A DNA stretch of 64,000 nt from Deltaproteobacteria bacterium (GCA_040218735.1 JAVJQW010000027.1:7518-71517); one strand, 5' to 3'; positions 10,277 through 21,470 are shown, counted from the stretch's first letter. Translations and numbers: made by a program. The notes: generated by a model from the sequence alone, not told the origin.

Positions 10277-11560
10277 ATGTCGATCCAGGGAAGCTACTTT
10301 TCCAACCCCTTCATGAACCCGTACCTCACGGGTGCATTCCCATCGGGCTCCAATCCGCTCGCGAGCAACCCGTTCGCCGCCCAGATGTTCGGCGGCAGCG
10401 CGCTCGACATGTTCTCGATGGGCAACACGTCCATCCCGGCGGCGCAGATGCTGCCGATGTTGATGGGCGCGATCATCCAGCAGCAGCTCGCGCTGATGTT
10501 CCTCGCCGAGCTCCTCGCGGGCGGCGGCGGACGTCGTCAGCAGGGCGGCGGTTGCAACCACTGCGGCGGGTTCCCGAACGGCAACTTCAACTCGGGCCGT
10601 CGCCTCGGTCCGGGCGCCTGGAACAACAACGGCGTCACCGGCCCCGGCGCGGGCGTCATCCCCACGCCCGGCGCAGCCGCGCACAACGGCACCGCGACGA
10701 TCGACTCCGTGCGCAACTCGGGCGCGCGCAACCAAATGGTCTCCGGCCGCATCACGGTGAACGGCCGCACGTACCAGTACAACAGCGGCGGTCACGGTCG
10801 CGGCAGCCTCCCGCCGGGCCAGTACCAGGTCACGCCGCACATGTTCAGTCGCAACACCCGAGGTATGGTGCGCGACGGCGTCGGTTACAGCTTCGCGCTG
10901 AACAACGCGTACGACCCGCGCGTCGGCGACACGCGCACCGCGCTCCGCATCCACCCGGACGGTGGCAGCGCCGGCACGATGGGCTGCATCGGCATCGTCG
11001 GTGACGCGGCGACGCAGCGTCAGTTCCGCGCGGACATGATGGCCGAGATCCAGCGCAACGGCGGCAGCTTCACGCTGAACGTCGGTGTCCCCGGCAACCA
11101 GGTCCCGAACTCGCCGACCAACGTCGCGAACAACGGCGTCACCGGCCCGACGAGCGCGTCGGCGGCGAACCTCAACCGTCACCTCGGCGGGGTCTTCAGC
11201 GGCCAGGGCCAGGCGTTCATCGACGCCGCGCGTCGCCACGGCATCGACCCGAACCTCCTCGCTGCGATCGCGATCCACGAGACGGGGAACGGCACGTCGA
11301 ACGCCGTGCGCAACCACAACAACCCCGGCGGCCTGATGAACCCGCGCACCAACTGGAGCACGCTGCAGCGCTTCGGCAGCCTCTCGCAGGGCATCGACGC
11401 GATGGCGCGCAACCTCAAGCGCGGCTACATCAGCCAGGGCCTGACGAGCATCTCAGCGATCGGTCGCAAGTACGCGCCCGTCGGCGCCGGCAACGACCCG
11501 CGCGGCCTCAACCGCCACTGGGTCCCGAACGTCACCGACATCCTGCGTCGGATCTCCTGA
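10277..11560 (+). CDS. Two-domain peptidoglycan-targeting protein: Tlde1/DUF2778-like L,D-transpeptidase-fold domain + glucosaminidase (FlgJ/LytD-type) domain
   Basis: ATG preceded by GGAGGA. The middle region 'YNSGGHGRGSLPPGQYQV ... TALRIHPDGGSAGTMGCIGI' shows a YkuD-like His..Gly-Cys catalytic motif as in Tlde1 effectors. The C-terminus 'GQAFIDAARRHGIDPNLLAAIAIHETGNGTS' is a glucosaminidase signature. The N-terminal ~130 aa are N/G/P/Q-rich with no signal peptide. Confidence 0.75.
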   Translation: MSIQGSYFSNPFMNPYLTGAFPSGSNPLASNPFAAQMFGGSALDMFSMGNTSIPAAQMLPMLMGAIIQQQLALMFLAELLAGGGGRRQQGGGCNHCGGFPNGNFNSGRRLGPGAWNNNGVTGPGAGVIPTPGAAAHNGTATIDSVRNSGARNQMVSGRITVNGRTYQYNSGGHGRGSLPPGQYQVTPHMFSRNTRGMVRDGVGYSFALNNAYDPRVGDTRTALRIHPDGGSAGTMGCIGIVGDAATQRQFRADMMAEIQRNGGSFTLNVGVPGNQVPNSPTNVANNGVTGPTSASAANLNRHLGGVFSGQGQAFIDAARRHGIDPNLLAAIAIHETGNGTSNAVRNHNNPGGLMNPRTNWSTLQRFGSLSQGIDAMARNLKRGYISQGLTSISAIGRKYAPVGAGNDPRGLNRHWVPNVTDILRRIS

Positions 11561-11833
11561 TCAAGTCCGAGCGTATCGCTGCGCCGCGCGGGCCTTTGCC
11601 TTCGCGGCTTCTTCCTCGCGGTTCTTCGGCGGCGCGTTCGTTTCGAGCGAATCCACGAGCTGGCGGGTCGCCAACGCGATCATCTCCACCGCGCGATCGA
11701 ACGCCTCTTCGTTGGCCTTGCTCGGCTTCCGCGAGCCGCTGATCTTCCGCACGTACTGGAGCGCCGCGTCGCGGACCTCCTCGTCCGTGGCGGGCGGCTC
11801 GAAGTTGAACAGCGGGCGAATGTTGCGGCACAT
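11561..11833 (-). CDS. DUF2277-family small protein
   Basis: The internal start gives 'MCRNIRPLFNFEPPATDEEVRDAALQYVRKISG', the characteristic N-terminus of this family. An alternative ATG lies at 11851. Confidence 0.75.
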   Translation of the reverse strand: MCRNIRPLFNFEPPATDEEVRDAALQYVRKISGSRKPSKANEEAFDRAVEMIALATRQLVDSLETNAPPKNREEEAAKAKARAAQRYART

Positions 11834-11864
11834 GCGCGGAAGGTAACGCATTCGAGGCCTCCCT

Positions 11865-12956
11865 GTGGACGTCGCGGGGGCCTTCGTCGCAATCTCGTCG
11901 TCGGTGCGTCGGTTCGCCCTGCTCCTGCTCGCGCTCGTCGCCTGTCGCGACAACGCGCCGGCCTGCCCGGAGGGTGCGGCGTGCGCGACCGCGTGCGCTT
12001 CGGACGCGGAATGTGGCGCCGACGAGATCTGCAACCAGGCGATGCGCTGTCAGCGCCGCCCGCGCTGTCGCTCCAACGCGGACTGCGAAGCGGCCGAGCA
12101 GTGTGATCCGACCAGCGGCTCGTGCGTCGCGCCGCAGGTCTGCTTCGCCGACCTGCACTGCGCCTTCGGCGAGCTGTGCGAGGACGGTGCCTGTGTCCCG
12201 GGTTGCCGCTCGGACGGGGACTGCCCGCTGTACTCCGTCTGCGATGCCGGCGCGTGCACGAACGAATGCGGCTCGAATGCGTTTTGTGATCTCGGCTCGG
12301 TCTGCGCGGCCGGCACCTGCTACCCGTCGCCGAACCCGAGCCACTGCGCGCCCTGCGACGCCGATCGCCCGTGCCCCTACGCATCGGACTACTGCCTGCT
12401 CAACCACAACTACGACGCCAACGAGCCGTCGCGCGGGACGGCGCGTTACTGCGCGGTGGACTGTCTCGGCGACGCCAACGTCTGCCCGAATGGCTACGCG
12501 TGTCAGCCGGTCACCCTCCTCACCGAGGACCCCTGCGAACGCGACATCCAGTGCCAGCGCGAAGATCGCCGGTGTCTGATCGAGGAAGGCGCGACCCGGG
12601 GCTTCTGCTCGTGCGGCAACGACTTCGACTGCCTCCCGGAGTCCCTCCCGCCGCGGTGCCGCCTCGGCTTCTGCGAATCACCGAGCGGTCAACTCTGCGG
12701 GAGCGACCGCGACTGCCGACCGCTCGTGCTCTGCGACAGACACGGCGGGAGCCCGGTCGACATCTGCGCCAACGACGGCTCGCGCTGCGACTCCGCGGAG
12801 GACTGCCTCTGCCACGAAGGTCGCTGCCTCAACACCGGACGCGTATGCGAGCAGGGCAGCGACTGCATCTTGCCGTGTGTCGACGGCGTGTGTTTCGTCG
12901 GCGCCGCGTGCGCGCCCGTCGAGGGGTTGTACTGTCCCGAACTTCGCGAGATGTGA
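11865..12956 (+). CDS. Cysteine-rich secreted lipoprotein (myxobacterial Cys-rich repeat type)
   Basis: Lipobox LLLALVAC, then dense recurring C..D..C / 'CxSDxDCxxxxxC' units over the whole length. Confidence 0.7.
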   Translation: MDVAGAFVAISSSVRRFALLLLALVACRDNAPACPEGAACATACASDAECGADEICNQAMRCQRRPRCRSNADCEAAEQCDPTSGSCVAPQVCFADLHCAFGELCEDGACVPGCRSDGDCPLYSVCDAGACTNECGSNAFCDLGSVCAAGTCYPSPNPSHCAPCDADRPCPYASDYCLLNHNYDANEPSRGTARYCAVDCLGDANVCPNGYACQPVTLLTEDPCERDIQCQREDRRCLIEEGATRGFCSCGNDFDCLPESLPPRCRLGFCESPSGQLCGSDRDCRPLVLCDRHGGSPVDICANDGSRCDSAEDCLCHEGRCLNTGRVCEQGSDCILPCVDGVCFVGAACAPVEGLYCPELREM

Positions 12957-13026: not shown

Positions 13027-13869
13027 GTGGCGCCCGGGGGGCTCGGTCGCGCTGAAACACATTTGAGAACTCTTGTCGTTGCCAGCCAGAAGGGGGGCGT
13101 TGGAAAGACCACGCTCGCCCTCAACCTCAGCTACGCGTTCGCCGAGGCCGGCTTCAAAACGCTGCTCGTCGACACCGATCCGCAGGGTGCCGTCGGCCTG
13201 TCGCTCTCCCCGTCGGTCGCGCGACGGGCCGGCCTTGCGGACGTCATCGCGGGGGAGGTGGGCGTCGACGACGCCGTCCTGCAGACGAAACACGAGCGGC
13301 TCGCGCTGATGCCCGTCGGGCGCATCGCGCCGAAGGAAGTCGCGGCCTTCTCCCGCGCCATCGTCGACGGGCGTCGCCTCGAACCCGTCCTCGACGGGCT
13401 GCACGACCGTTACGACGTCAAGATCATCGACACACCGTGCGGGTTCGGCGGGATTACGGTCGAGGCGCTACGCAACTCCACGCACGTCGTCTCGCCGATC
13501 CTCGCGGAGCCGATCGTCATGCGCTCGGTCCCGCAGCTCTTCGAGATGGTGCAATCGCTCATCGAAGAGGGTGTGGCCACGTGCATCGTCGGACTCGTCG
13601 TGACGATGCTCCAGGCTCAGGAACAGTACTCGTCGAGCGTTGCTCGCGAGCTGCGAACGCTGTTCCCGCCCGAGCTGCTCTTCGACGTCGACATTCCGCG
13701 CCAACCGATCTTCCTCGAGGCGACGTCGCTCGGTGTACCCGTCGGGCTGCTCCGTACGCCCGCGCCACCCGTCACTCATCTCATCAACCTCATCGCTGCG
13801 GAGATCGCGAATCGCATGCAGCTCTTCAGGAAAGACGACCATGTCCGGCACCGGACCCTCGTGGATTGA
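13027..13869 (+). CDS. ParA/MinD-family ATPase (deviant Walker A)
   Basis: 'LVVASQKGGVGKTTLALNLSYAFAEAGFKTLLVDTDPQG' plus Walker B-like 'DVKIIDTP'. The start is uncertain: GTG 13027 or TTG 13063. The listed ATG at 12877 would overlap the upstream gene by 80 nt. Confidence 0.8.
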   Translation: MAPGGLGRAETHLRTLVVASQKGGVGKTTLALNLSYAFAEAGFKTLLVDTDPQGAVGLSLSPSVARRAGLADVIAGEVGVDDAVLQTKHERLALMPVGRIAPKEVAAFSRAIVDGRRLEPVLDGLHDRYDVKIIDTPCGFGGITVEALRNSTHVVSPILAEPIVMRSVPQLFEMVQSLIEEGVATCIVGLVVTMLQAQEQYSSSVARELRTLFPPELLFDVDIPRQPIFLEATSLGVPVGLLRTPAPPVTHLINLIAAEIANRMQLFRKDDHVRHRTLVD

Positions 13870-14407
13870 AACGGATCGGCTGAGCGGCCTCGTCGCCCTC
13901 ACCGCGTGGCGGCGTCCCGCGGCGTCCGGCACAACGTCACGCTTCGGTGTGACGGAGGTCCACGCACGCTTCGACGACGACGGGCAAAACCGAACCCTCG
14001 TTACGCCGATCCCGGAGCCTCCGCCCGTAGGGGCCGTTTCGATGGCGGGCCCCATCGAAACGCGGCTCGACGCCCTCATGGCATGGAGCGTGTCGACGCT
14101 GAAGCTGTCGTCGGCCTACGTCGCCGATGACGAGGGACTGCTCCTCGCCTCGACCTCCGAGGTGGCGCTCCCGCCGGTCGTGACCACGTGTATCGACACG
14201 TTGGTACGGCAGTGGACGCGGTACGCTGCGCGCCCCCGCGGCTGCCTGATCGTACGTGCTGACGGACTAGCCCACGCCGTCGCGTGGACGAACCTGGGCG
14301 AACGTACGTACTTCCTCGTCGTGAGTGGCGCACACCACGACGATTTCGCGCCGGTCGACCCTCTCGTCGAGGGGCTCGCGAGTGCGTTGGAGTCCAAAGA
14401 CCGATGA
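13841..14407 (+). CDS. Roadblock/LC7 (MglB-like) domain protein
   Basis: ATG with AGGAAAG 7 nt upstream, overlapping the ParA-like 3' end by 29 nt. 'LSSAYVADDEGLLLAST ... CLIVRADGLAHAVAW ... YFLVVSG' fits the Roadblock alpha-beta-alpha pattern (by eye). Confidence 0.55.
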   Translation: MSGTGPSWIETDRLSGLVALTAWRRPAASGTTSRFGVTEVHARFDDDGQNRTLVTPIPEPPPVGAVSMAGPIETRLDALMAWSVSTLKLSSAYVADDEGLLLASTSEVALPPVVTTCIDTLVRQWTRYAARPRGCLIVRADGLAHAVAWTNLGERTYFLVVSGAHHDDFAPVDPLVEGLASALESKDR

Positions 14408-14982
14408 ATGACGAGCAACTCAGGATGACCGTCTCGACCATCCCGCGCCTGCGCGCGTGCGCTGTGGTCAGCACACGGGGCGGTGCGCTTCGCGCGACGT
14501 ACCTGTCGCCTACGGAGAGTTGGGACGCGATCGACTTCGCGCAGGTGGTCGGGCGTCTGTTCGACGACGCGTCGGGCGCGCTCGGGCTCATCGGTGCCGG
14601 CGGCGCCGAGCAGCTGCTCCTCGAGGCCCGCGGGCGTCGCGTCGCGCTCCAGGCGCTCGACGCAAACCACGTCGCGGCGTTTGTGTTCGACCGCGAAGCG
14701 AAGCTCGGGATGATCCGCCATCGCCTCGACGATCTCCGCGCCGCGCTCACGGAGAACCTGGGCGATCACAACGGCACCGCTCAACGCGGCGCGACGATCC
14801 TCGAGTACCTCGAGCGCAACGCCGCCGACACCCACGCGGCGCTGCTGAGAGTGTCACTCCAAACCGGCTTGCCAATGAGCCTCCTGAGAACGCCCGACAG
14901 CCTCTCCGAAGCCGAGCTCGAGAGCGTCGCCGCCTCCGTACGTCAGATCCTCGGCGTGCAGACTCTGGGAATCGAGTCATGA
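14404..14982 (+). CDS. Roadblock/LC7 (MglB-like) domain protein
   Basis: ATGA overlap with the upstream stop. 'IPRLRACAVVSTRGGALRATYL ... QLLLEARGRRVALQALDANHVAAFVFDREAKLGMIRHRLDDL' is a good Roadblock pattern. Confidence 0.65.
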   Translation: MNDEQLRMTVSTIPRLRACAVVSTRGGALRATYLSPTESWDAIDFAQVVGRLFDDASGALGLIGAGGAEQLLLEARGRRVALQALDANHVAAFVFDREAKLGMIRHRLDDLRAALTENLGDHNGTAQRGATILEYLERNAADTHAALLRVSLQTGLPMSLLRTPDSLSEAELESVAASVRQILGVQTLGIES

Positions 14983-16241
14983 CCAACATCGCCCACCTCT
15001 TCGAGAGCCGCTCCACGATGGAGTCGCACCAGATGGACTTCCTCGCGGAGACGCAGGTCGTCTTTCACTGCCACCACTTCAACCTGTTCTTCGACCAGAC
15101 GATCGACGACGCGCTCGGACCGGAGCGCGGCACCGAGCTGCGCGTCGAAGCCGGGCACAAGTCGGCGTACCACCTGCTGCGCGGGCTCTTCCGCAGCGGT
15201 CGCTACCGCACACCGATCGAACGGCTCGACGCCGCGACGACGCTCCTGCGCGCGATGGGCCACGGCCGCGTCGACTCCATGACGAATCGCTCCGGAGGCA
15301 CCGCGACCGGTGACTACCTGCACTACGGGTTCGGGTGGCAAGAGAAGTACGGCGACGCCGTCAAGCGGAACCACTGCGCGGATGCCTTCGCCGCCGGCTT
15401 TCTCTCCGCTGCGAACGAGCTCGCGTACGACCTCGACCTCGGGTCCCTCGCGACGCGCGAGTCGCGCTGCATCGCGACGGGGGAGCGTCAGTGTCACTTC
15501 GAGGTCGAGCCGCGTCGGCAGCGACTGCTCACCAGCAACGTGCACCCGTCCACCGCGGAGGCGACGTTGCCGGCGTCGTTCGAAGGTGAGTTCGAAGATC
15601 GGATCGAGGCGATCACCAAAGGGCTGCGTGAGTTTCTCTCCGGGGTCCAAGGCGACGAGCGTGGGGTGATCGACGCCTTCGGCGTGCTCGTCACGATGCA
15701 CCTCGCCGACTACTACAACCACCTCGCGAACGACACGCTGCGCGTTGTCGCCACCGAGAAGCCCCACGCACAAGACGCGTTCCGTTCCTTGCTCGTGGAG
15801 TCCGGGCAGGTCTGCTCCTTCCACACGTTCGGGGGGGTGCTCGCGTCGCCGGAGTGGGACGGTATGGTCGGGGCTCCGTCCGGTGAACCGTCGGAGGTCG
15901 TCGTCGGGGGCCTCGCACTCGCGCGCGCGTTGGGGTTCGGACGGTGGAGCCTCGAGGATTGGATCCCCGAGAAACAGCTCGTCCTCGGGAGCCCGGGTAC
16001 TTATGAGAGTCTGTTCTCGCGTCTCGCGCCGATGTCACCGCATCGCGCGCCGAGCGGGATCTTTCCGGGCGCGGCGCTCGGGATCATGTCCCTCGCGCAC
16101 CGCGTCGACTGGGCGAACAAACAACCCCTCGATGCGGCCCTCTACCGGCAGCTCGTTTCGAACAACCCGTGGAAGGTCGAGCAGACGCATTCGATCGTCG
16201 CGGGTGACGACCGGGACCGCGTGGTGGTGAGTCTGAAGTGA
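14979..16241 (+). CDS. Tandem V4R-domain protein (second copy degenerate)
   Basis: ATGA overlap with the upstream stop. The first half ends 'NHCADAFAAGFLSAANE...LATRESRCIATGERQCHFEVE', the V4R Cys signature. The second half ends 'VEQTHSIVAGDDRDRVVVSL', with the same spacing but no Cys. Confidence 0.6.
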   Translation: MTNIAHLFESRSTMESHQMDFLAETQVVFHCHHFNLFFDQTIDDALGPERGTELRVEAGHKSAYHLLRGLFRSGRYRTPIERLDAATTLLRAMGHGRVDSMTNRSGGTATGDYLHYGFGWQEKYGDAVKRNHCADAFAAGFLSAANELAYDLDLGSLATRESRCIATGERQCHFEVEPRRQRLLTSNVHPSTAEATLPASFEGEFEDRIEAITKGLREFLSGVQGDERGVIDAFGVLVTMHLADYYNHLANDTLRVVATEKPHAQDAFRSLLVESGQVCSFHTFGGVLASPEWDGMVGAPSGEPSEVVVGGLALARALGFGRWSLEDWIPEKQLVLGSPGTYESLFSRLAPMSPHRAPSGIFPGAALGIMSLAHRVDWANKQPLDAALYRQLVSNNPWKVEQTHSIVAGDDRDRVVVSLK

Positions 16242-16564
16242 CTTCGCTCGTCGCCACGCCACCGACGCCCGACCGCGGGTGTCGGAATCAGATCCTCTGG
16301 GAGTGCGGGTTGTCGCCGACGCTCCACGCGGAGGACTTCGTCGCGCGAGTGCTCGCCGCGGGGGCCCGCGACGTCGGACCGCCGGGCATCCCGTCGCTGC
16401 GGATGTTCGAAGCTCCCGAAGGCGGGCATCGGCTCGTGTTCGTCCCGAGGACGTCGCGGCTTCAGCTCCGGCTCGACGCGATGACGCCGCAAGGGACCCG
16501 CGTCGATGCGGCGCGTGCGCTGCACGCGTGGCTCGTCGAAGTGCTGACGCGAGGTGAAGCGTGA
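16238..16564 (+). CDS. Hypothetical small protein in the operon
   Basis: GTGA overlaps at both ends (16238 and 16561). Codon bias is consistent with coding. No recognisable motif. Confidence 0.5.
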   Translation: MTSLVATPPTPDRGCRNQILWECGLSPTLHAEDFVARVLAAGARDVGPPGIPSLRMFEAPEGGHRLVFVPRTSRLQLRLDAMTPQGTRVDAARALHAWLVEVLTRGEA

Positions 16565-17646
16565 ACCGAGTCCTGATCGTCGATGGCGACGTCGACACCC
16601 TCCGCCGCGCGCGCGCCGGGTTGTTGGTGCACGGCTTCTCGGTGCTGACCGCGACGAACCGCGAGGAGGCGTTGGAGCTGCTCTCGGCGAGCCCGGTCTC
16701 CGTGATGGTCGTGGAGCACGCGTTGGAAGGGCGGACCGGGCACAAACTGATCGAAGAGGTGCGGCGCCGGTGGTCGTCGACGGCGTGTGTGCTCGCGGTG
16801 ACGAACGAGGACGGTCGTCGCGTGGCGCGCGAGGTGGGCGCGTCGCGCGTCGTGGCGAAGCCGTACGACAACGACCGCCTGGTCAACGTGCTGGCGTCGC
16901 TGCGCGGCGGCGCCGGATTCACCGGCACGGGCCTGACGGGGTTCAACCTCACGGACCTGTTGCAGCTGGTGTCGATGTCCGGGCAGGCGATGACCTTGCG
17001 CGTGAACCGGGGTGACGAAGACGGGGAGATGTGTGTCTCGAACGGTCGCCTCGTGCACGCGCGTGCGGGTGACATGTCCGGCGTGGACGCGGGGCTCGAG
17101 ATGTTGTCGTGGACCGACGGTGAGGTCGCGTCGTCGCCCGAGGTTTTGCCGGAGCCGCAGTGGACGTCGGACCTCCCGGTGATGGAGCTGCTGATGAACG
17201 CGGCGCGCCACCGGGACGAGCAGGTGGCTGGGCAACAACGCAAGCGAACGCAGGCCGCGCTGCGTGGGTTGGTGGCGTTGGACGGGGTGCTCGCGAGCGT
17301 CGTGTACGCGCGGCCGTCGTTCGACGAGCTGGTCGTCGCGACCTCGGAGGGGGCGCCCGAGCGCGACGCGGACCGTCGTTGGATCGTCCTCGCGTTGGAC
17401 GCGCTGAAAGAGGCCGATTCGTTCACTTCGATGCACTGGGACGGACCGCGGCACGGCATCACCGTCGTACCGATCCGAACGAACGGCGTCCTGGTGGTGT
17501 GGACGCAGGCGGGGGGCCGCCACGATCCCTACCGCTCGGTGCTCGACGATCTCCGCGTTCACCTCGAGGAGACGCTCGGTGAGATCGGCGAATCGTCTCA
17601 GGGCGCGGGTGGGCAGGTCTTGCGCGTCGTCCCCGAATCCGACTGA
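16561..17646 (+). CDS. Receiver-like (Asp->Glu at phospho-acceptor) + PATAN/DUF4388 + Roadblock-like C-terminal domain protein
   Basis: REC fold with 'VLIVDGD', 'VMVVEHALEGRTG' (E52 where the acceptor Asp is expected), 'LAVTNED' and 'VVAKPY'. PATAN segment 'GFNLTDLLQLVSMSGQAMTLRV...GRLVHARAG..SGVDAGLEMLSW'. C-terminal 'LDGVLASVVYAR ... GITVVPIRTNGVLVVWTQ' is Roadblock-like. Confidence 0.7.
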   Translation: MNRVLIVDGDVDTLRRARAGLLVHGFSVLTATNREEALELLSASPVSVMVVEHALEGRTGHKLIEEVRRRWSSTACVLAVTNEDGRRVAREVGASRVVAKPYDNDRLVNVLASLRGGAGFTGTGLTGFNLTDLLQLVSMSGQAMTLRVNRGDEDGEMCVSNGRLVHARAGDMSGVDAGLEMLSWTDGEVASSPEVLPEPQWTSDLPVMELLMNAARHRDEQVAGQQRKRTQAALRGLVALDGVLASVVYARPSFDELVVATSEGAPERDADRRWIVLALDALKEADSFTSMHWDGPRHGITVVPIRTNGVLVVWTQAGGRHDPYRSVLDDLRVHLEETLGEIGESSQGAGGQVLRVVPESD

Positions 17647-17689: not shown

Positions 17690-18607
17690 ATGATGGTCTC
17701 GAACGAAGGCTCCATTTGGGGCCTGCTCGCCTGGCAGTGGAAGAACACGCTGATCTTCACGGTCGCGTCGACGATCGCGTTCGTGATCTACGAGGTGCTC
17801 GGCTACACGTGGTTCAAGCTCCCCGCGCTCCCGCTCGGCGTGGTGGGTGGCGCCATCGGCATCTTCGTGAGCTTCAGGACGAACTCGGCGTACGACCGCT
17901 GGTGGGAGGGCCGAAAGCTGTGGGGGCGCATGATCAACACGTCCCGGCACTGGGGCCTGCAGGTCATGGCGTACCTTCCGAAGGCGGAGGGGGGCGCGGT
18001 CAGTGAGACGCAGCAGCGGCTGATTCGTCGGCACATCGCGTACGTCCACACGCTGCGCTGTGCGCTGCGCGGGCAGAAGCCGTTCGACGACGAGGACTTC
18101 AAGCAGGCGCTCCCCGATGACGCCGAAGCACTCCAGTCCGAGAGCAACCTCAACACGGCGCTGCTCGGCCGCCAGCTCGCGGACGTCAAGGCGCTCGCGC
18201 AGGAGGCGAAGATCGATTCGTTCGAGCTGTCGAACCTGGACCTGTCGATCCGACACCTCCTCGACATTCAGGGCGGGTGCGAGCGCATCAAGAAGACGCC
18301 GATGCCGCGCGGCTACGCCTTCATCGCGGAGCGCCTCGTGCGTTACTTCTCGTTCCTCTTCCCGCTCGCGCTCGTCGCCGACCTCCACGCGTGGGTCATC
18401 CCGATCAACTTGCTCGTCTGCATGGCGTTTGCGTTGATCAGCGAGGCGGGGCGCGTGTTGGAAGATCCGTTCACGCTCTTCTGGAACGGCCTGCCGCTGA
18501 TGGCGATCAGCCGCATGATCGAGGTGAACCTCGAGGAGCGCATGGAGACGCCACGCGACCAGCTGAAGCCCATGCTCGCGCCGAACGAGAAGGGCATCCT
18601 CATGTAG
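17690..18607 (+). CDS. Bestrophin-family (YneE/UPF0187) anion channel
   Basis: 'FVSFRTNSAYDRWWEGRKLWGRMINTSR' and 'GCERIKKTPMPRGYAF' are family hallmarks. About 4 TM helices. Confidence 0.8.
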   Translation: MMVSNEGSIWGLLAWQWKNTLIFTVASTIAFVIYEVLGYTWFKLPALPLGVVGGAIGIFVSFRTNSAYDRWWEGRKLWGRMINTSRHWGLQVMAYLPKAEGGAVSETQQRLIRRHIAYVHTLRCALRGQKPFDDEDFKQALPDDAEALQSESNLNTALLGRQLADVKALAQEAKIDSFELSNLDLSIRHLLDIQGGCERIKKTPMPRGYAFIAERLVRYFSFLFPLALVADLHAWVIPINLLVCMAFALISEAGRVLEDPFTLFWNGLPLMAISRMIEVNLEERMETPRDQLKPMLAPNEKGILM

Positions 18608-20474
18608 CGCGCGGGCGGGTCGTGCCCCAGACCAACACCTGGATCGCGACCACCGCCACGAGTGTCAGCGCGACCGCGTGGGAGATGTAACGCGGCCACA
18701 CCGCACCGGCGCAGGCGCCCGCGAGCGCCGCGGCGGACGAGAGCAACGTGCGACGATCCATCGTGACGGCGAGGATGCCGAGGCCGGTGGCGAGGAGGAG
18801 GAGGTCCTGGACGAGGACCTTCTCGATCGGGACGTCCATCACGATCGACAGCCACAGGTGAATCGGCGCGACGATGCCGAGGGTGAGGATCGAGAACCCG
18901 ATCTTCTTCGCCGCCTGATTTGCGAACAGCGTGCGCCGGAAGAGCGCGCCGACGATCACGACGACGGACAACAACCCGAGGCGGCCGCTCATCCAGGCCC
19001 GCTCGCCGCCGAGGTCGAGCCACTCCAGGAGGTATAGGCCGCTTACGGCGATGCCGCAGGTGATGCCGAGCGCGGTGTACGCGCGGGCGCGTCCGCCGGC
19101 GGCGACGTCGAGGTCGGCCTCGAGATCTTGGAGCTGACGGAAGCGCTCCTCCTGTTGCGCCTCTTCCGCCTTCAGCGCGTCGAGGCGCGCGGGGAGGTCG
19201 CCGCGATCCTCCTGGGCGAGCTCCGCGATCAAGAGCTCGGCGCCCTCGGCGTTGTCGCGTTGGAGCTCGTGCGCGGCCATCAGCGCGATCGCCGCGGCGA
19301 GCCCGGCGTTCGCGTCGGGGAGGTCGGGCGTGACGCGGAGCGCTTCTTCGTACGCGAAGCGGCACTCGCCAAAGATGCGGTACTGCGCGACGCGATCGTC
19401 GACGAGGGTCTCGAGGCGACGGTGTTTGTCGCGGGCCTGCCGGACGAGGTCGACGGAGGAGCGCGTCTGGAGGAAGTCGAGGAGCGCGACGCGGAGCTGT
19501 TCGGGATCTTCGTAGCGATCGTTCGGTTTCGGTGCGAGCGCGCGGCGCGCGATGTCGACGAGCGCGTCGGGCGTGCCTTCGGGGTACGTGTACTCGGTCG
19601 CGAAGCTCTGCAGCAGAACGGCGATGAGGTCGCCGCCGCGGTGCGGGGGAGCGCCGGTGAGCATGTGATGGAGCAGGCCGCCGAGGAGGTACACGTCGGT
19701 GCGTGGTCCGACGTAACCCGCGGTCGCGTCGATCATCTCCGGTGCGAGGTACGCGGGTGTCCCGACGAGCGCCATGGGGCGCCCGGCTTCGCGGTCGTCG
19801 CGGAGGTCGTCGATGCGCACCGCGATGCCCCAGTCCAGGAGGTAGACCTCGCCGAAGTCACCGACCATGACGTTCTCGGGTTTGATGTCGCGGTGGAGGT
19901 AGCCGTGCCGGTGCGCGAAGTGCACCGCGTTGGCGACCTGCATGAGCACTTGCAGGCACCAGTCGAGGCGCGCGCCGCGGACCATCGCCCAGCGCGCGTG
20001 GTCGGGGTCGTCGAGCATCGACGACAGCGGGGTGCCGTCGATGCGTTTCATCATCAGCAGCGGCCGGCCGTCGACGTCGCGGCCGAGGAGGTGCACCGGC
20101 GGGATGTTCGGGTGTTCCAGCGCGCCGATGATGCGGGCTTCGCGGAGGAGGCCGGCGCGTGCGCCGGGGGAGTGGAGCTCGTGCAGGCGTTTGACGGCGA
20201 CTTCGCGACCGAGCGCGACTTGCCACGCGCTGCGGACGACGCCCATGCCGCCGCGCCCTAGCTCCCGTCCGAGGATCAGCTCGGTGGTCCTGAGGTCCGC
20301 GTCGCGTTCGCCGACGCGGACCGCGGTGAGCGGCTCGTCCTCCGGGAACATCGGCGTCGGTGCGGGACGGATGGAGAGGAGCGGGTCGGCGGACTGGTGG
20401 GTGTCGAGGAGGCCGACGTCGTCGAGGGCGGTGCGGATCGTCTCCTCGTAGGACACCGCCACCAAGGCTATCAC
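18600..20474 (-). CDS. Ser/Thr protein kinase with a C-terminal multi-TM domain
   Basis: 'GRELGRGGMGVV...VAVKRL', 'HRDIKPENVM', 'DWGIA', 'GTPAYLAPE'. About 6 TM helices at the C-terminus. The start is taken as the GTG overlapping the upstream stop (GTGA at 20471-20474). An alternative ATG lies at 20351. Confidence 0.8.
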   Translation of the reverse strand: MIALVAVSYEETIRTALDDVGLLDTHQSADPLLSIRPAPTPMFPEDEPLTAVRVGERDADLRTTELILGRELGRGGMGVVRSAWQVALGREVAVKRLHELHSPGARAGLLREARIIGALEHPNIPPVHLLGRDVDGRPLLMMKRIDGTPLSSMLDDPDHARWAMVRGARLDWCLQVLMQVANAVHFAHRHGYLHRDIKPENVMVGDFGEVYLLDWGIAVRIDDLRDDREAGRPMALVGTPAYLAPEMIDATAGYVGPRTDVYLLGGLLHHMLTGAPPHRGGDLIAVLLQSFATEYTYPEGTPDALVDIARRALAPKPNDRYEDPEQLRVALLDFLQTRSSVDLVRQARDKHRRLETLVDDRVAQYRIFGECRFAYEEALRVTPDLPDANAGLAAAIALMAAHELQRDNAEGAELLIAELAQEDRGDLPARLDALKAEEAQQEERFRQLQDLEADLDVAAGGRARAYTALGITCGIAVSGLYLLEWLDLGGERAWMSGRLGLLSVVVIVGALFRRTLFANQAAKKIGFSILTLGIVAPIHLWLSIVMDVPIEKVLVQDLLLLATGLGILAVTMDRRTLLSSAAALAGACAGAVWPRYISHAVALTLVAVVAIQVLVWGTTRPRAT

Positions 20475-20842
20475 TGGCCGTTTTCGCGCCGCCAGCAGGT
20501 GAACTGGGCGTTGGACGTGGAGCCCATTGCCGCGCAGAACGTGGCGTAGTCGAAGCCGGGGAGGGCGAGCAGCCGATCGAGCAGGGCGTCCTTCACGGCG
20601 CCGCCGGGCAGCGCGCAGCCGGAGGCCGGGCGGCCGTCCTCGTCGAAGGCGCCGACCAGGAGCCAGAAGACGTCCTCGGCGAAGGGGCCCTCGTCGGTGG
20701 TCATTACGGTGACCTCCGACAGCTCGTCCCAGCGGACGTACTCGAACGAGCCGTCGGCGCGGGACACCGAGACGCCGAGGTCGTCGTGGTCGAGGCGCGG
20801 TCCGGGGTTGGGGGTGAACAGGCGTTTGATCGTCTCGAACAT
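20471..20842 (-). CDS. Hypothetical protein (first gene of the kinase operon)
   Basis: Clean codon bias. ATG start next to an AT-rich promoter region. No recognisable motif. Confidence 0.6.
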   Translation of the reverse strand: MFETIKRLFTPNPGPRLDHDDLGVSVSRADGSFEYVRWDELSEVTVMTTDEGPFAEDVFWLLVGAFDEDGRPASGCALPGGAVKDALLDRLLALPGFDYATFCAAMGSTSNAQFTCWRRENGQ

Positions 20843-20865
20843 GAATACATCGTTGCCTTGATAAA

Positions 20866-20877
20866 TTGGGTATCCAA
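20866..20877. promoter_or_regulatory. Near-palindrome TTGGGTATCCAA, candidate TetR operator
   Basis: 5 of 6 palindromic pairs. It sits inside the unusually AT-rich 46-nt divergent spacer (TTGATAAATTGGGTATCCAACCAGTAAAC) between 20842(-) and the TetR gene at 20889(+). Confidence 0.3.
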
Positions 20878-20888
20878 CCAGTAAACCG

Positions 20889-21470
20889 ATGGCGATGGCT
20901 CGCCCCTCGAATCGATTCGAACGTCGCGCCGAGCTCGTTCGGGCACTCGAACAGGTCCTCGCGGAGCACGGCCTCGGTGGCGCTACCGTCGCGCGCGTCG
21001 CGGACGTGATGGGCTGCGCGCCCGGGCTGGTGCACCACCACTTCTCGGGTCGCGAGGAGCTGATGCGAGAGCTCGCGCGTTCGCTCGTCGAACGCTTCCG
21101 TCATCAGCTCCCGAACGAAAAGGACCCGGCGGCCTTCTTGGAGGCCTACGTCGACGCTGCCGTCGCGCTCCGGCCGTCGCGCGGTCGAACGGCGGCGCGC
21201 GCGTGGGTCGGCCTGTTCGCGGAGGCGGTGTGCACCGCGTCCGTACGCAGGGTCGTGCAACGTGCCTTGCAGACGGAGGTGCAGCGCCTGGAGTCACGCT
21301 TCGCCGCGCTGGGGGACGACCCGCAGCGCGCGAAGGAGAACGCGGCGGGGCTCGTGTCCGGAGTCGTGGGGTGCCTGGTGTTCGGCGCGATCGTCCCGAA
21401 CACCGCGGTGGGGTTCGCGGCGCCTTACCTGCGCCGGGTCATCGCACGGCGATCGTCGCCGTCGTCGTGA
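20889..21470 (+). CDS. TetR/AcrR-family transcriptional regulator
   Basis: N-terminal HTH 'LGGATVARVADVMGCAPGLVHHHFSGREELM'. Confidence 0.8.
   Translation: MAMARPSNRFERRAELVRALEQVLAEHGLGGATVARVADVMGCAPGLVHHHFSGREELMRELARSLVERFRHQLPNEKDPAAFLEAYVDAAVALRPSRGRTAARAWVGLFAEAVCTASVRRVVQRALQTEVQRLESRFAALGDDPQRAKENAAGLVSGVVGCLVFGAIVPNTAVGFAAPYLRRVIARRSSPSS

Follow-up and report, generated by a model that had tools for sequence, protein, structure and literature searches.

A 64000-nt stretch of DNA from a Deltaproteobacteria bacterium (GCA_040218735.1, contig JAVJQW010000027.1, positions 7518–71517; hereafter the window) carries six genes at positions 13027–17646 of the + strand, which are labelled g1–g6 in their order. 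They belong to a real and conserved module, which joins a ParA-type ATPase gene to genes for predicted Roadblock proteins and a tandem V4R-fold protein and which is apparently undescribed. As the original prediction for this DNA had supposed from the sequence alone, no published account of the module was found: the literature searched on the domain combination, on DUF4388/PATAN and on Hoch_6822–6827 gave no description, although one may exist in other papers. Our tentative reading, which we regard as quite possible without calling it probable, is that the six genes specify a complex in the cytoplasm that senses small molecules and is coupled to the ParA-type ATPase. Control of a ParA ATPase by Roadblock proteins is put forward as a hypothesis.

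Organization and conservation of the module

All six ORFs (open reading frames) and their junctions were re-found at the positions first predicted. The ATG of g2 at 13841 lies within g1, whose end at 13869 gives the two genes an overlap of 29 nt. At the next two junctions, g2/g3 (14404) and g3/g4 (14979), the sequence is ATGA, and at the last two, g4/g5 (16238) and g5/g6 (16561), it is GTGA. The tight coupling suggested for these genes was borne out, and overlaps are kept across related loci. The GC content at third codon positions was 0.80–0.89 in all six genes within a window of ~68% GC, which fits coding sequence. A promoter scan revealed no sigma70-like site, a result that says little in a GC-rich organism. 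The public gene call for the g2 protein of the window is likewise 188 aa long, and that for g3 starts seven codons downstream of the start originally predicted; the longer g3 form is favoured because the N-terminus of its orthologues is conserved.

A pattern scan of 185579 species genomes gave 138 relatives of g4, and 80 loci were kept. They lie mostly in Polyangia (Polyangiaceae, Nannocystales, Haliangiales and Kofleriaceae), with several in Acidobacteriota (Thermoanaerobaculia and Acanthopleuribacteraceae) and a few in genome bins that bear the label Methylococcaceae or Bdellovibrionales. The order g1-g2-g3-g4-g5 was found in most of the 80 loci, with junctions that are mostly overlaps of 1–8 nt or gaps of less than 40 nt, and both order and overlaps were kept at 25–60% protein identity over two phyla. 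Such conservation in approximately 80 loci, across Myxococcota and reaching Acidobacteriota, is therefore far beyond chance.

Co-occurrence was counted among the loci with enough flanking sequence. The tightest pair was g3 and g4, with g3 ahead of g4 in 67 of 69 loci, and ParA was present in 60 of the 69. The hierarchy begins with g3-g4, followed by g5, then g1-g2, then the PATAN/TPR proteins described below. What is invariant at the core of the module is the combination of Roadblock with V4R (and g5) rather than that of ParA with Roadblock.

The ParA-type ATPase and its overlap with g2

The g1 protein matched the Pfam families AAA_31 (97 bits, E 1e-27), CbiA (60 bits) and ParA (44 bits), all above cut-offs. 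It has a Walker A motif KGGVGKT at 13090–13110 (within SQKGGVGKTT), a DTDPQG motif and a Walker B motif IIDTP, so that the xKGGxGK[ST] P-loop, Walker A′ (DxDPQ) and Walker B expected of ParA/MinD proteins are all present. Family matches and motifs thus agree with the initial view of g1 as a ParA/MinD ATPase with a deviant Walker A. Among 58 orthologues, the catalytic motifs (KGGVGKTT with its signature lysine, DTDPQG and Walker B) were at least 95% conserved; because they are intact and conserved, g1 is expected to be a catalytically active ATPase. The NCBIfam ParA, MinD and BcsQ-type models all matched below their (equivalog) cut-offs, placing g1 outside any named subfamily.

In nearly all loci, an ORF of 176–277 aa begins 25–31 nt ahead of the ParA stop and finishes at the g3 start. 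The resulting out-of-frame ParA/g2 overlap of 25–31 nt (13841–13869 in the window) is kept in most loci, and it codes for both the conserved C-terminal tail of ParA, DDxPIxLLD, and the start of the N-terminal peptide of g2. The overlap is a dual-coding constraint.

Assignment of g2 and g3 to the Roadblock superfamily

Two proteins of ~190 aa with a Roadblock pattern had been proposed by eye. With single sequences this was not visible: g3 had no Pfam match, none of the g2, g3 and g6 proteins of the window matched Robl_LC7 at the Pfam gathering score, and PDB searches with g2 and g3 gave no match, so that family profiles were needed. The Roadblock profile check thus succeeded for some family members (best E 2e-5) and not for the window proteins themselves.

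For g3, a profile of 47 orthologues had MglB chains as all of its top six PDB matches (E 0.004–0.3), and JGI names several g3 orthologues as Roadblock/LC7/MglB family. The AlphaFold model, built from 56 sequences (pLDDT, the predicted local distance difference test score, 88.5), showed an alpha-beta-beta-alpha-beta-beta-beta-alpha arrangement in residues 1–118. Its top Foldseek matches were archaeal Roadblock3 (9jue), Myxococcus xanthus MglB (6hjm), a Streptomyces Roadblock protein and LAMTOR2, with TM (template modelling) scores of 0.8–0.85, a root-mean-square deviation of ~2.0 Å and E-values of 1e-7 to 1e-6. On this model, g3 is predicted to have the Roadblock/LC7 fold. Its helical tail (residues 124–183) contains the invariant residues D142, H144 and R149.

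The g2 protein is fast-evolving (mean column identity 21%) and conserved in position. In the family alignment, its conserved N-terminal peptide is joined by a Pro/Ala-rich linker of variable length to a C-terminal domain of approximately 115 residues. A word-indexed homologue search with g2 returned 13 proteins; an exhaustive profile search gave 345 hits at E ≤ 0.001, which were reduced to 148 representatives. Eleven of the 148 matched a Roadblock-superfamily Pfam entry (eight Robl_LC7, best E 2.1e-5, two LAMTOR5 and one MP1), and unrelated families matched at most two representatives each. The best PDB matches of the family profile were the Robl_LC7 entry 7f8f and LAMTOR5 (E 0.25–0.4). HHalign aligned the g2 domain with g3 (P 0.016) and with the C-terminus of g6 (P 2.4e-4 over 113 columns). 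Taken at the level of family profiles, g2 is very probably a Roadblock protein. The proposed pair is thus upheld, for g3 by the model and Foldseek and for g2 by the family profile.

The tandem sensor protein g4

The g4 protein of the window scored 15.3 bits against Pfam V4R, under the 31-bit cut-off, and V4R was matched by 72 of 118 members of the g4 family (best E 2.8e-12), which includes Hoch_6825 of Haliangium ochraceum, annotated as '4-vinyl reductase'. AlphaFold modelled g4 with a pLDDT of 96.3 and a pTM (predicted TM score) of 0.94, and a beta-alpha-alpha-alpha-beta-beta-alpha-alpha-beta-beta pattern was present in both halves of the model. The two halves aligned with each other in HHalign, covering the Cys hairpin (P 4e-4). 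The Cys pair of the second half is kept in approximately one-third of g4 orthologues and lost here. The model, the alignment of the halves and the V4R matches in the family all support the original description of a tandem V4R protein with a Cys-less second copy.

The top Foldseek matches of g4 were the complete phenol-sensor domains of MopR (7vqf), PoxR (5fru) and DmpR, with TM scores to the target of 0.66–0.75 over ~185 columns, E-values of 6e-5 to 9e-4 and sequence identities of 12–19%. They were followed by the archaeal V4R protein MJ1460 and then by TRAPPC3/Bet3 and H-NOX (E 0.01–0.1). Because the phenol-sensor domains are structurally nearest and Bet3 is clearly more distant, the modelled g4 looks more like a ligand sensor than like a TRAPP-like GEF (guanine nucleotide exchange factor) subunit. 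Of its earlier classification as V4R (Bet3-like), the V4R fold stands, whereas the nearest relatives are bacterial ligand sensors and not Bet3. The first half carries a putative Zn-type site, E-x2-C-x7-C. We take Glu178 of MopR to be a zinc residue in addition to its two zinc cysteines. The spacing of the latter, C181 and C189, equals the C-x7-C of g4 C164/C172 (PMC9556785). Ligand binding has also been proposed for V4R/TRAPPC3-like proteins (PMC10933270).

The first strand of g4 has a nearly invariant H-C-H-H-F-N at residues 30–35, with a counterpart H...YYN at residues 241–247 of the second half; this region could be a metal or ligand site. A stand-alone paralogue of g4 with 41% identity was found in marine metagenome genomes (8001–9251 in L001/L002 and 7001–8242 in L036; L numbers designate related loci). 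It lies directly after genes for a pyridoxal phosphate-dependent decarboxylase (Pyridoxal_deC + tyr_de_CO2_C) and a short-chain dehydrogenase, and no ParA or Roadblock gene adjoins it. The decarboxylase beside the paralogue hints that the ligand of the g4 family may be an aromatic amine or phenolic compound.

g5, g6 and alternating accessory proteins

The g5 protein has the invariant residues C15, W21, R74 and R78 and a motif VPRTGRxQxR. BLAST or its motif placed it immediately behind g4 in 53 of 78 loci; with the divergent copies recognized by eye, of which there are at least 11, the count rises to 64 or more. No relative was found in Pfam, NCBIfam or the PDB (by profile), nor among g1–g4 and g6 by HHalign. 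Judged by its conserved residues and position, g5 is a real conserved gene. The C-x7-C of g5 was considered as a substitute for the Cys pair lost from the second half of g4 and was rejected, as the two were uncorrelated across loci.

Both domains assigned to the body of g6 scored above their Pfam cut-offs (Table 1), including the PATAN/DUF4388 segment that had been called by eye. Its C-terminus aligned with the g3 family over the whole domain (106 columns, P 8.7e-5) as well as with the g2 family, and on these profile alignments is a Roadblock-like domain, as was likewise called by eye. The term 'pseudo-receiver', used initially for the same protein, is fair for this genome only, because the phospho-acceptor position varies among orthologues: it is Glu52 in the window, Gly/Ala in Nannocystales, but Asp in L004 (the closest relative) and Haliangium, so that the term does not hold for the whole family.

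The REC-PATAN-Roadblock architecture of g6 is restricted to the subgroup of the window. Approximately 50 other loci have a protein that is absent from the window: it is 310–400 aa long, lies directly upstream of ParA, ends in a conserved TPR-like region (motif AYLRRDY...PDDxRxxHNxExL) and has TPR repeats or PATAN at its N-terminus. This upstream TPR/PATAN-TPR protein appears to alternate with g6. PATAN thus accompanies the module in three architectures: REC-PATAN-Roadblock, PATAN-TPR and PATAN-Roadblock. Downstream of g4, Kofleriaceae loci have an extra ORF of ~110 aa that looks by eye like a Roadblock protein, and a weak-DUF4388 protein without a receiver domain whose C-terminus also looks like Roadblock by eye.

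A minimal g3-g4(-g5) unit without ParA or g2 was seen in L061 (6404–8523), L029 (6316–8520) and L047/L049 (upstream of 6387/6416). One ParA-less unit lies directly downstream of narGHJI-like genes, and two have DUF4388-like (PATAN) proteins in the upstream slot that is normally that of ParA.

Proposed mechanism and alternatives

In the mechanism that we tentatively favour, g4, g3 and g5 would form a ligand-sensing core and g2 would be the partner of ParA. The N-terminal peptide of g2 would dock on the ATP-bound ParA dimer and stimulate hydrolysis; by pairing with its counterpart in g3 or g6, the Roadblock domain of g2 would tie the core to the ATPase. As ParA cycles in an ATP-dependent manner, probably on the nucleoid, the complex would be positioned, partitioned or toggled, and ligand binding to g4 would modulate this positioning or switching. 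The PATAN/TPR accessory protein (g6 here) may, by analogy, link the complex to the cell-pole or type IV pilus polarity machinery.

We read g2 as a ParA partner because of its layout of peptide, disordered linker and globular domain. Partners of ParA/MinD proteins bind through a disordered N-terminal peptide and the remainder binds cargo (PMC10241942). By this analogy, the architecture of g2 appears to suit a ParA partner or adaptor of the classical kind no less well than a regulator made of a Roadblock pair. The pairing of its Roadblock domain is expected since Roadblock proteins act as dimers. The suggested link to polarity and pili draws on an analogy with cyanobacterial PATAN response regulators and with the PATAN neighbours of MglA/MglB: a 2021 preprint reports an interaction of PATAN response regulators with the type IV pilus motor, and genes for MglB and MglA are known to have PATAN genes beside them (PMC4316618).

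Several observations weigh against this mechanism. The N-terminal peptide of g2 is not clearly basic, whereas known ParA partner peptides are mostly positively charged, and no motility genes are consistently adjacent to the module. In nine loci, both strands are free of a ParA motif over a distance of 7 kb. Of these, two (L036 and L075) also lack g3 and have g4 only; the other seven keep g3-g4 and some of them g5, and ParA is therefore dispensable in cis. One ParA-less locus, L083, retains g2 including its N-terminal peptide.

The original prediction had put the Roadblock proteins at the centre of the mechanism, in the manner of MglB. A g2/g3 heterodimer would be a platform on the ParA dimer, resembling a GAP (GTPase-activating protein) or a GEF, an arrangement that we consider unlikely; ParA would replace the Ras-like GTPase MglA and the V4R protein would supply the input, which is just as doubtful. 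In favour of such a switch, g3 superposes on MglB, which is also its best sequence-profile match, and 328 orphan MglB homologues were uncharacterized in 2014 (PMC4316618). Two distinct Roadblock proteins adjoin the sole NTPase of the module, and the absence of a small GTPase noted originally was confirmed in three ways: Pfam found none among the flanking genes of the window, a tblastn search with an MglA query sequence not drawn from a database detected nothing resembling MglA in the window or the 80 loci, and a Walker A screen of ORFs in related loci (GxxxxGK[ST], with NKxD flagged) found no small GTPase beside the module. However, Roadblock/longin platforms are known to bind small GTPases of the TRAFAC class and are not known to bind SIMIBI ParA dimers. 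ParA is also missing from nine of the 69 loci, and the peptide and linker of g2 suggest peptide-mediated stimulation and not a platform. We are sceptical that Roadblock proteins directly regulate, or form a platform for, a SIMIBI-class ParA in complex with a V4R (Bet3-superfamily) protein.

Alternatively, the Roadblock, V4R and PATAN proteins may act on a small GTPase encoded elsewhere, with ParA as a co-transcribed localization factor or functionally separate. Several MglA-like GTPases are usual in large myxobacterial genomes, the g2 protein of the window is on record from a contig of 11.5 Mb, and the g3-g4-g5 unit does occur without ParA. Elsewhere, MglB and PATAN genes are found near MglA genes (PMC4316618). 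We nevertheless regard a GTPase in trans as rather improbable, as 87% of loci have both ParA and g2, with their translation coupled, and no GTPase was found within 7 kb at any locus.

The sensor-like nature of g4 also raises the possibility of a ligand-responsive DNA regulator, in which the helical tail of g3 would be a helix-turn-helix (HTH) acting in a ParB-like manner with ParA on the nucleoid. Structurally, g4 is related to the sensor domains of transcription activators, g1 has the ParA/Soj-type DxDPQG motif, and the g3 C-terminal domain has a weak resemblance to the LacI-type HTH of CytR. However, that best match was not significant (E 0.6), none of the six proteins matched a DNA-binding domain of Pfam, and the recurrent PATAN/TPR partners point to protein–protein signalling. 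Such a DNA-binding role for g3 is improbable, and so, to the same degree, is control of transcription or of a chromosomal locus by the ligand of g4.

An anti-phage or conflict system, or a chance adjacency without a functional unit, is highly improbable: ParA-like and STAND-like P-loops are common in defence systems and signalling genes are dense in Myxococcota, but PADLOC gave P-loop-level matches for g1 only and none for the other five proteins, GC content is uniform along the window with nothing island-like, and order and overlaps are conserved at the identities given above in two phyla.

Comparison with described systems

The MglA/MglB(/MglC)–RomR/RomX system of M. xanthus shares with the module its Roadblock regulators, a response-regulator-type accessory protein (RomR), its occurrence in Myxococcota and, sometimes, a PATAN gene nearby; MglB and MglC are paralogues of the Roadblock fold (PMC4316618). 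The NTPase of that system is a Ras-like TRAFAC GTPase, whereas the only NTPase of the module is the ParA-type ATPase. A V4R protein is present here and absent from MglAB, and g2 and g3 have extensions that MglB lacks (the N-terminal peptide and linker of g2 and the helical tail of g3). The module is not MglAB, because it has no GTPase. The conservon CvnA–D of actinobacteria is likewise a cassette of sensor, Roadblock protein, small accessory protein and NTPase. Its CvnA is a membrane histidine kinase, CvnC a DUF742 protein and CvnD an MglA-family GTPase, whereas no HATPase, DUF742 or GTPase match was found in the six proteins; without CvnA, CvnC and CvnD, the module is not a conservon.

Like the module, the ParABS, McdAB, ParC/ParP and PomXYZ systems have the gene of a deviant Walker A ATPase beside a diverse partner with an N-terminal peptide. 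In contrast to the module, no known partner or cargo of the ParA/MinD systems is made of Roadblock and V4R domains, and the module is not a described ParA cargo system. The best structural match for each half of g4 is MopR/PoxR/DmpR, with the zinc-cysteine spacing noted above, and the native sensor of the MopR type is a dimer, which the tandem repeat of g4 may mimic. The sigma54 activators have AAA+ and HTH outputs, whereas g4 has two sensor-like halves in one chain and no match to an AAA+ or HTH domain; for this reason the module is not a sigma54 phenol regulator.

Roadblock and V4R/Bet3 superfamilies also occur together in the Ragulator/TRAPP complexes of eukaryotes and Asgard archaea. The resemblance of g4 to Bet3/TRAPPC3 is weak (E 0.01–0.1, TM ~0.55), and the clients of Ragulator and TRAPP are Rab and Rag GTPases. 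In Asgard MK-D1, small GTPase genes generally share no operon with Roadblock, longin or TRAPPC3 genes (PMC10933270). Unlike that arrangement of GTPase versus Roadblock/longin/TRAPPC3 genes, the Roadblock and V4R genes of the module overlap.

Significance

Roadblock/MglB proteins are usually seen as regulators of Ras-like GTPases, and in 2014 hundreds of orphan MglB homologues were still without an assigned partner (PMC4316618). The module offers one class of orphan MglB both a candidate partner, the ParA-type ATPase, and a candidate input, the MopR-like sensor. For the ParA/MinD field, a Roadblock + V4R signalling complex would be a possible new kind of partner or cargo; for evolutionary cell biology, this is a bacterial operon that joins Ragulator and TRAPP folds. 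If ParA were regulated directly, the partnership of Roadblock proteins with NTPases would extend beyond Ras-like GTPases, and a coupled Roadblock + V4R assembly would exist as a bacterial operon. These hypotheses are testable, as cultured Haliangium ochraceum has a g4 orthologue (Hoch_6825) and uncultured Haliangium genomes have the whole module.

Feature coordinates and neighbouring genes

Table 1. Features of the module, of the flanking genes in the window and of related loci (L numbers)
Feature	Position	Strand	Description
g1	13027–13869	+	ParA-type (deviant Walker A) ATPase, 280 aa
g2	13841–14407	+	188 aa; N-terminal peptide, Pro-rich linker, Roadblock-like domain (predicted)
g2 N-terminal peptide	13841–13900 (residues 1–20)	+	conserved in family alignment
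g2 Roadblock-like domain	14060–14404 (residues ~74–188)	+	family profile
g3	14404–14982	+	192 aa; predicted Roadblock/LC7 domain and 4-helix C-terminal domain
g3 Roadblock/LC7 domain	14404–14757 (residues 1–118)	+	AlphaFold, Foldseek
g3 4-helix C-terminal domain	14773–14952 (residues 124–183)	+	AlphaFold; conserved
g4	14979–16241	+	420 aa; predicted tandem MopR/PoxR-like sensor domain (XylR_N+V4R fold)
g4 N-terminal half	14979–15563	+	carries E161-x2-C164-x7-C172 (15459–15494)
g4 C-terminal half	15564–16238	+	Cys pair absent in this genome
g5	16238–16564	+	108-aa conserved orphan protein
g6	16561–17646	+	361 aa; REC, PATAN/DUF4388, Roadblock-like C-terminus
g6 REC domain	16570–16893	+	Pfam Response_reg, 49.9 bits (cut-off 30.2), E 4e-13
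g6 PATAN/DUF4388	16933–17223 (residues 125–221)	+	Pfam, 61.1 bits (cut-off 25), E 1e-16
g6 Roadblock-like C-terminal domain	~17242–17610	+	family profile alignment
C-terminal glucosaminidase protein	10280–11560	+	Gly/Asn-rich region before the domain; not a module member
DUF2277 protein	11561–12034	-	adjoins glucosaminidase gene; not a module member
Cys-rich protein	11865–12956	+	363 aa; weak DUF7107 match
Bacterial bestrophin	17690–18607	+	
Ser/Thr kinase	18600–21260	-	886 aa; C-terminal membrane region by eye
Upstream TPR/PATAN protein, examples	L038 4070–4999; L058 4020–4949; L080 3878–4909		
Kofleriaceae extra ORFs	L064, L066, L069, L072, L077, L078, L080, L081		
GAF-GGDEF/histidine-kinase neighbours	L005–L009, L013: ~3.1 kb (L013 1.5 kb) past g4 start; L010, L012, L026		

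The flanks of the module in the window are unrelated to it, coding for the Cys-rich protein, the DUF2277 protein, the bestrophin, the Ser/Thr kinase, a TetR regulator and a multihaem cytochrome. Only in L004, the closest relative, are the first and third of these proteins (Cys-rich and bestrophin) also conserved beside the module, and a similar kinase lies downstream there as well. Downstream of the module, Nannocystales loci have in common a protein of 728 aa, which by eye resembles a membrane GAF-GGDEF protein, and in Haliangium loci the protein at the corresponding place resembles, again by eye, a histidine kinase. These GAF-GGDEF and histidine-kinase neighbours could reflect lineage-specific signalling or chance.

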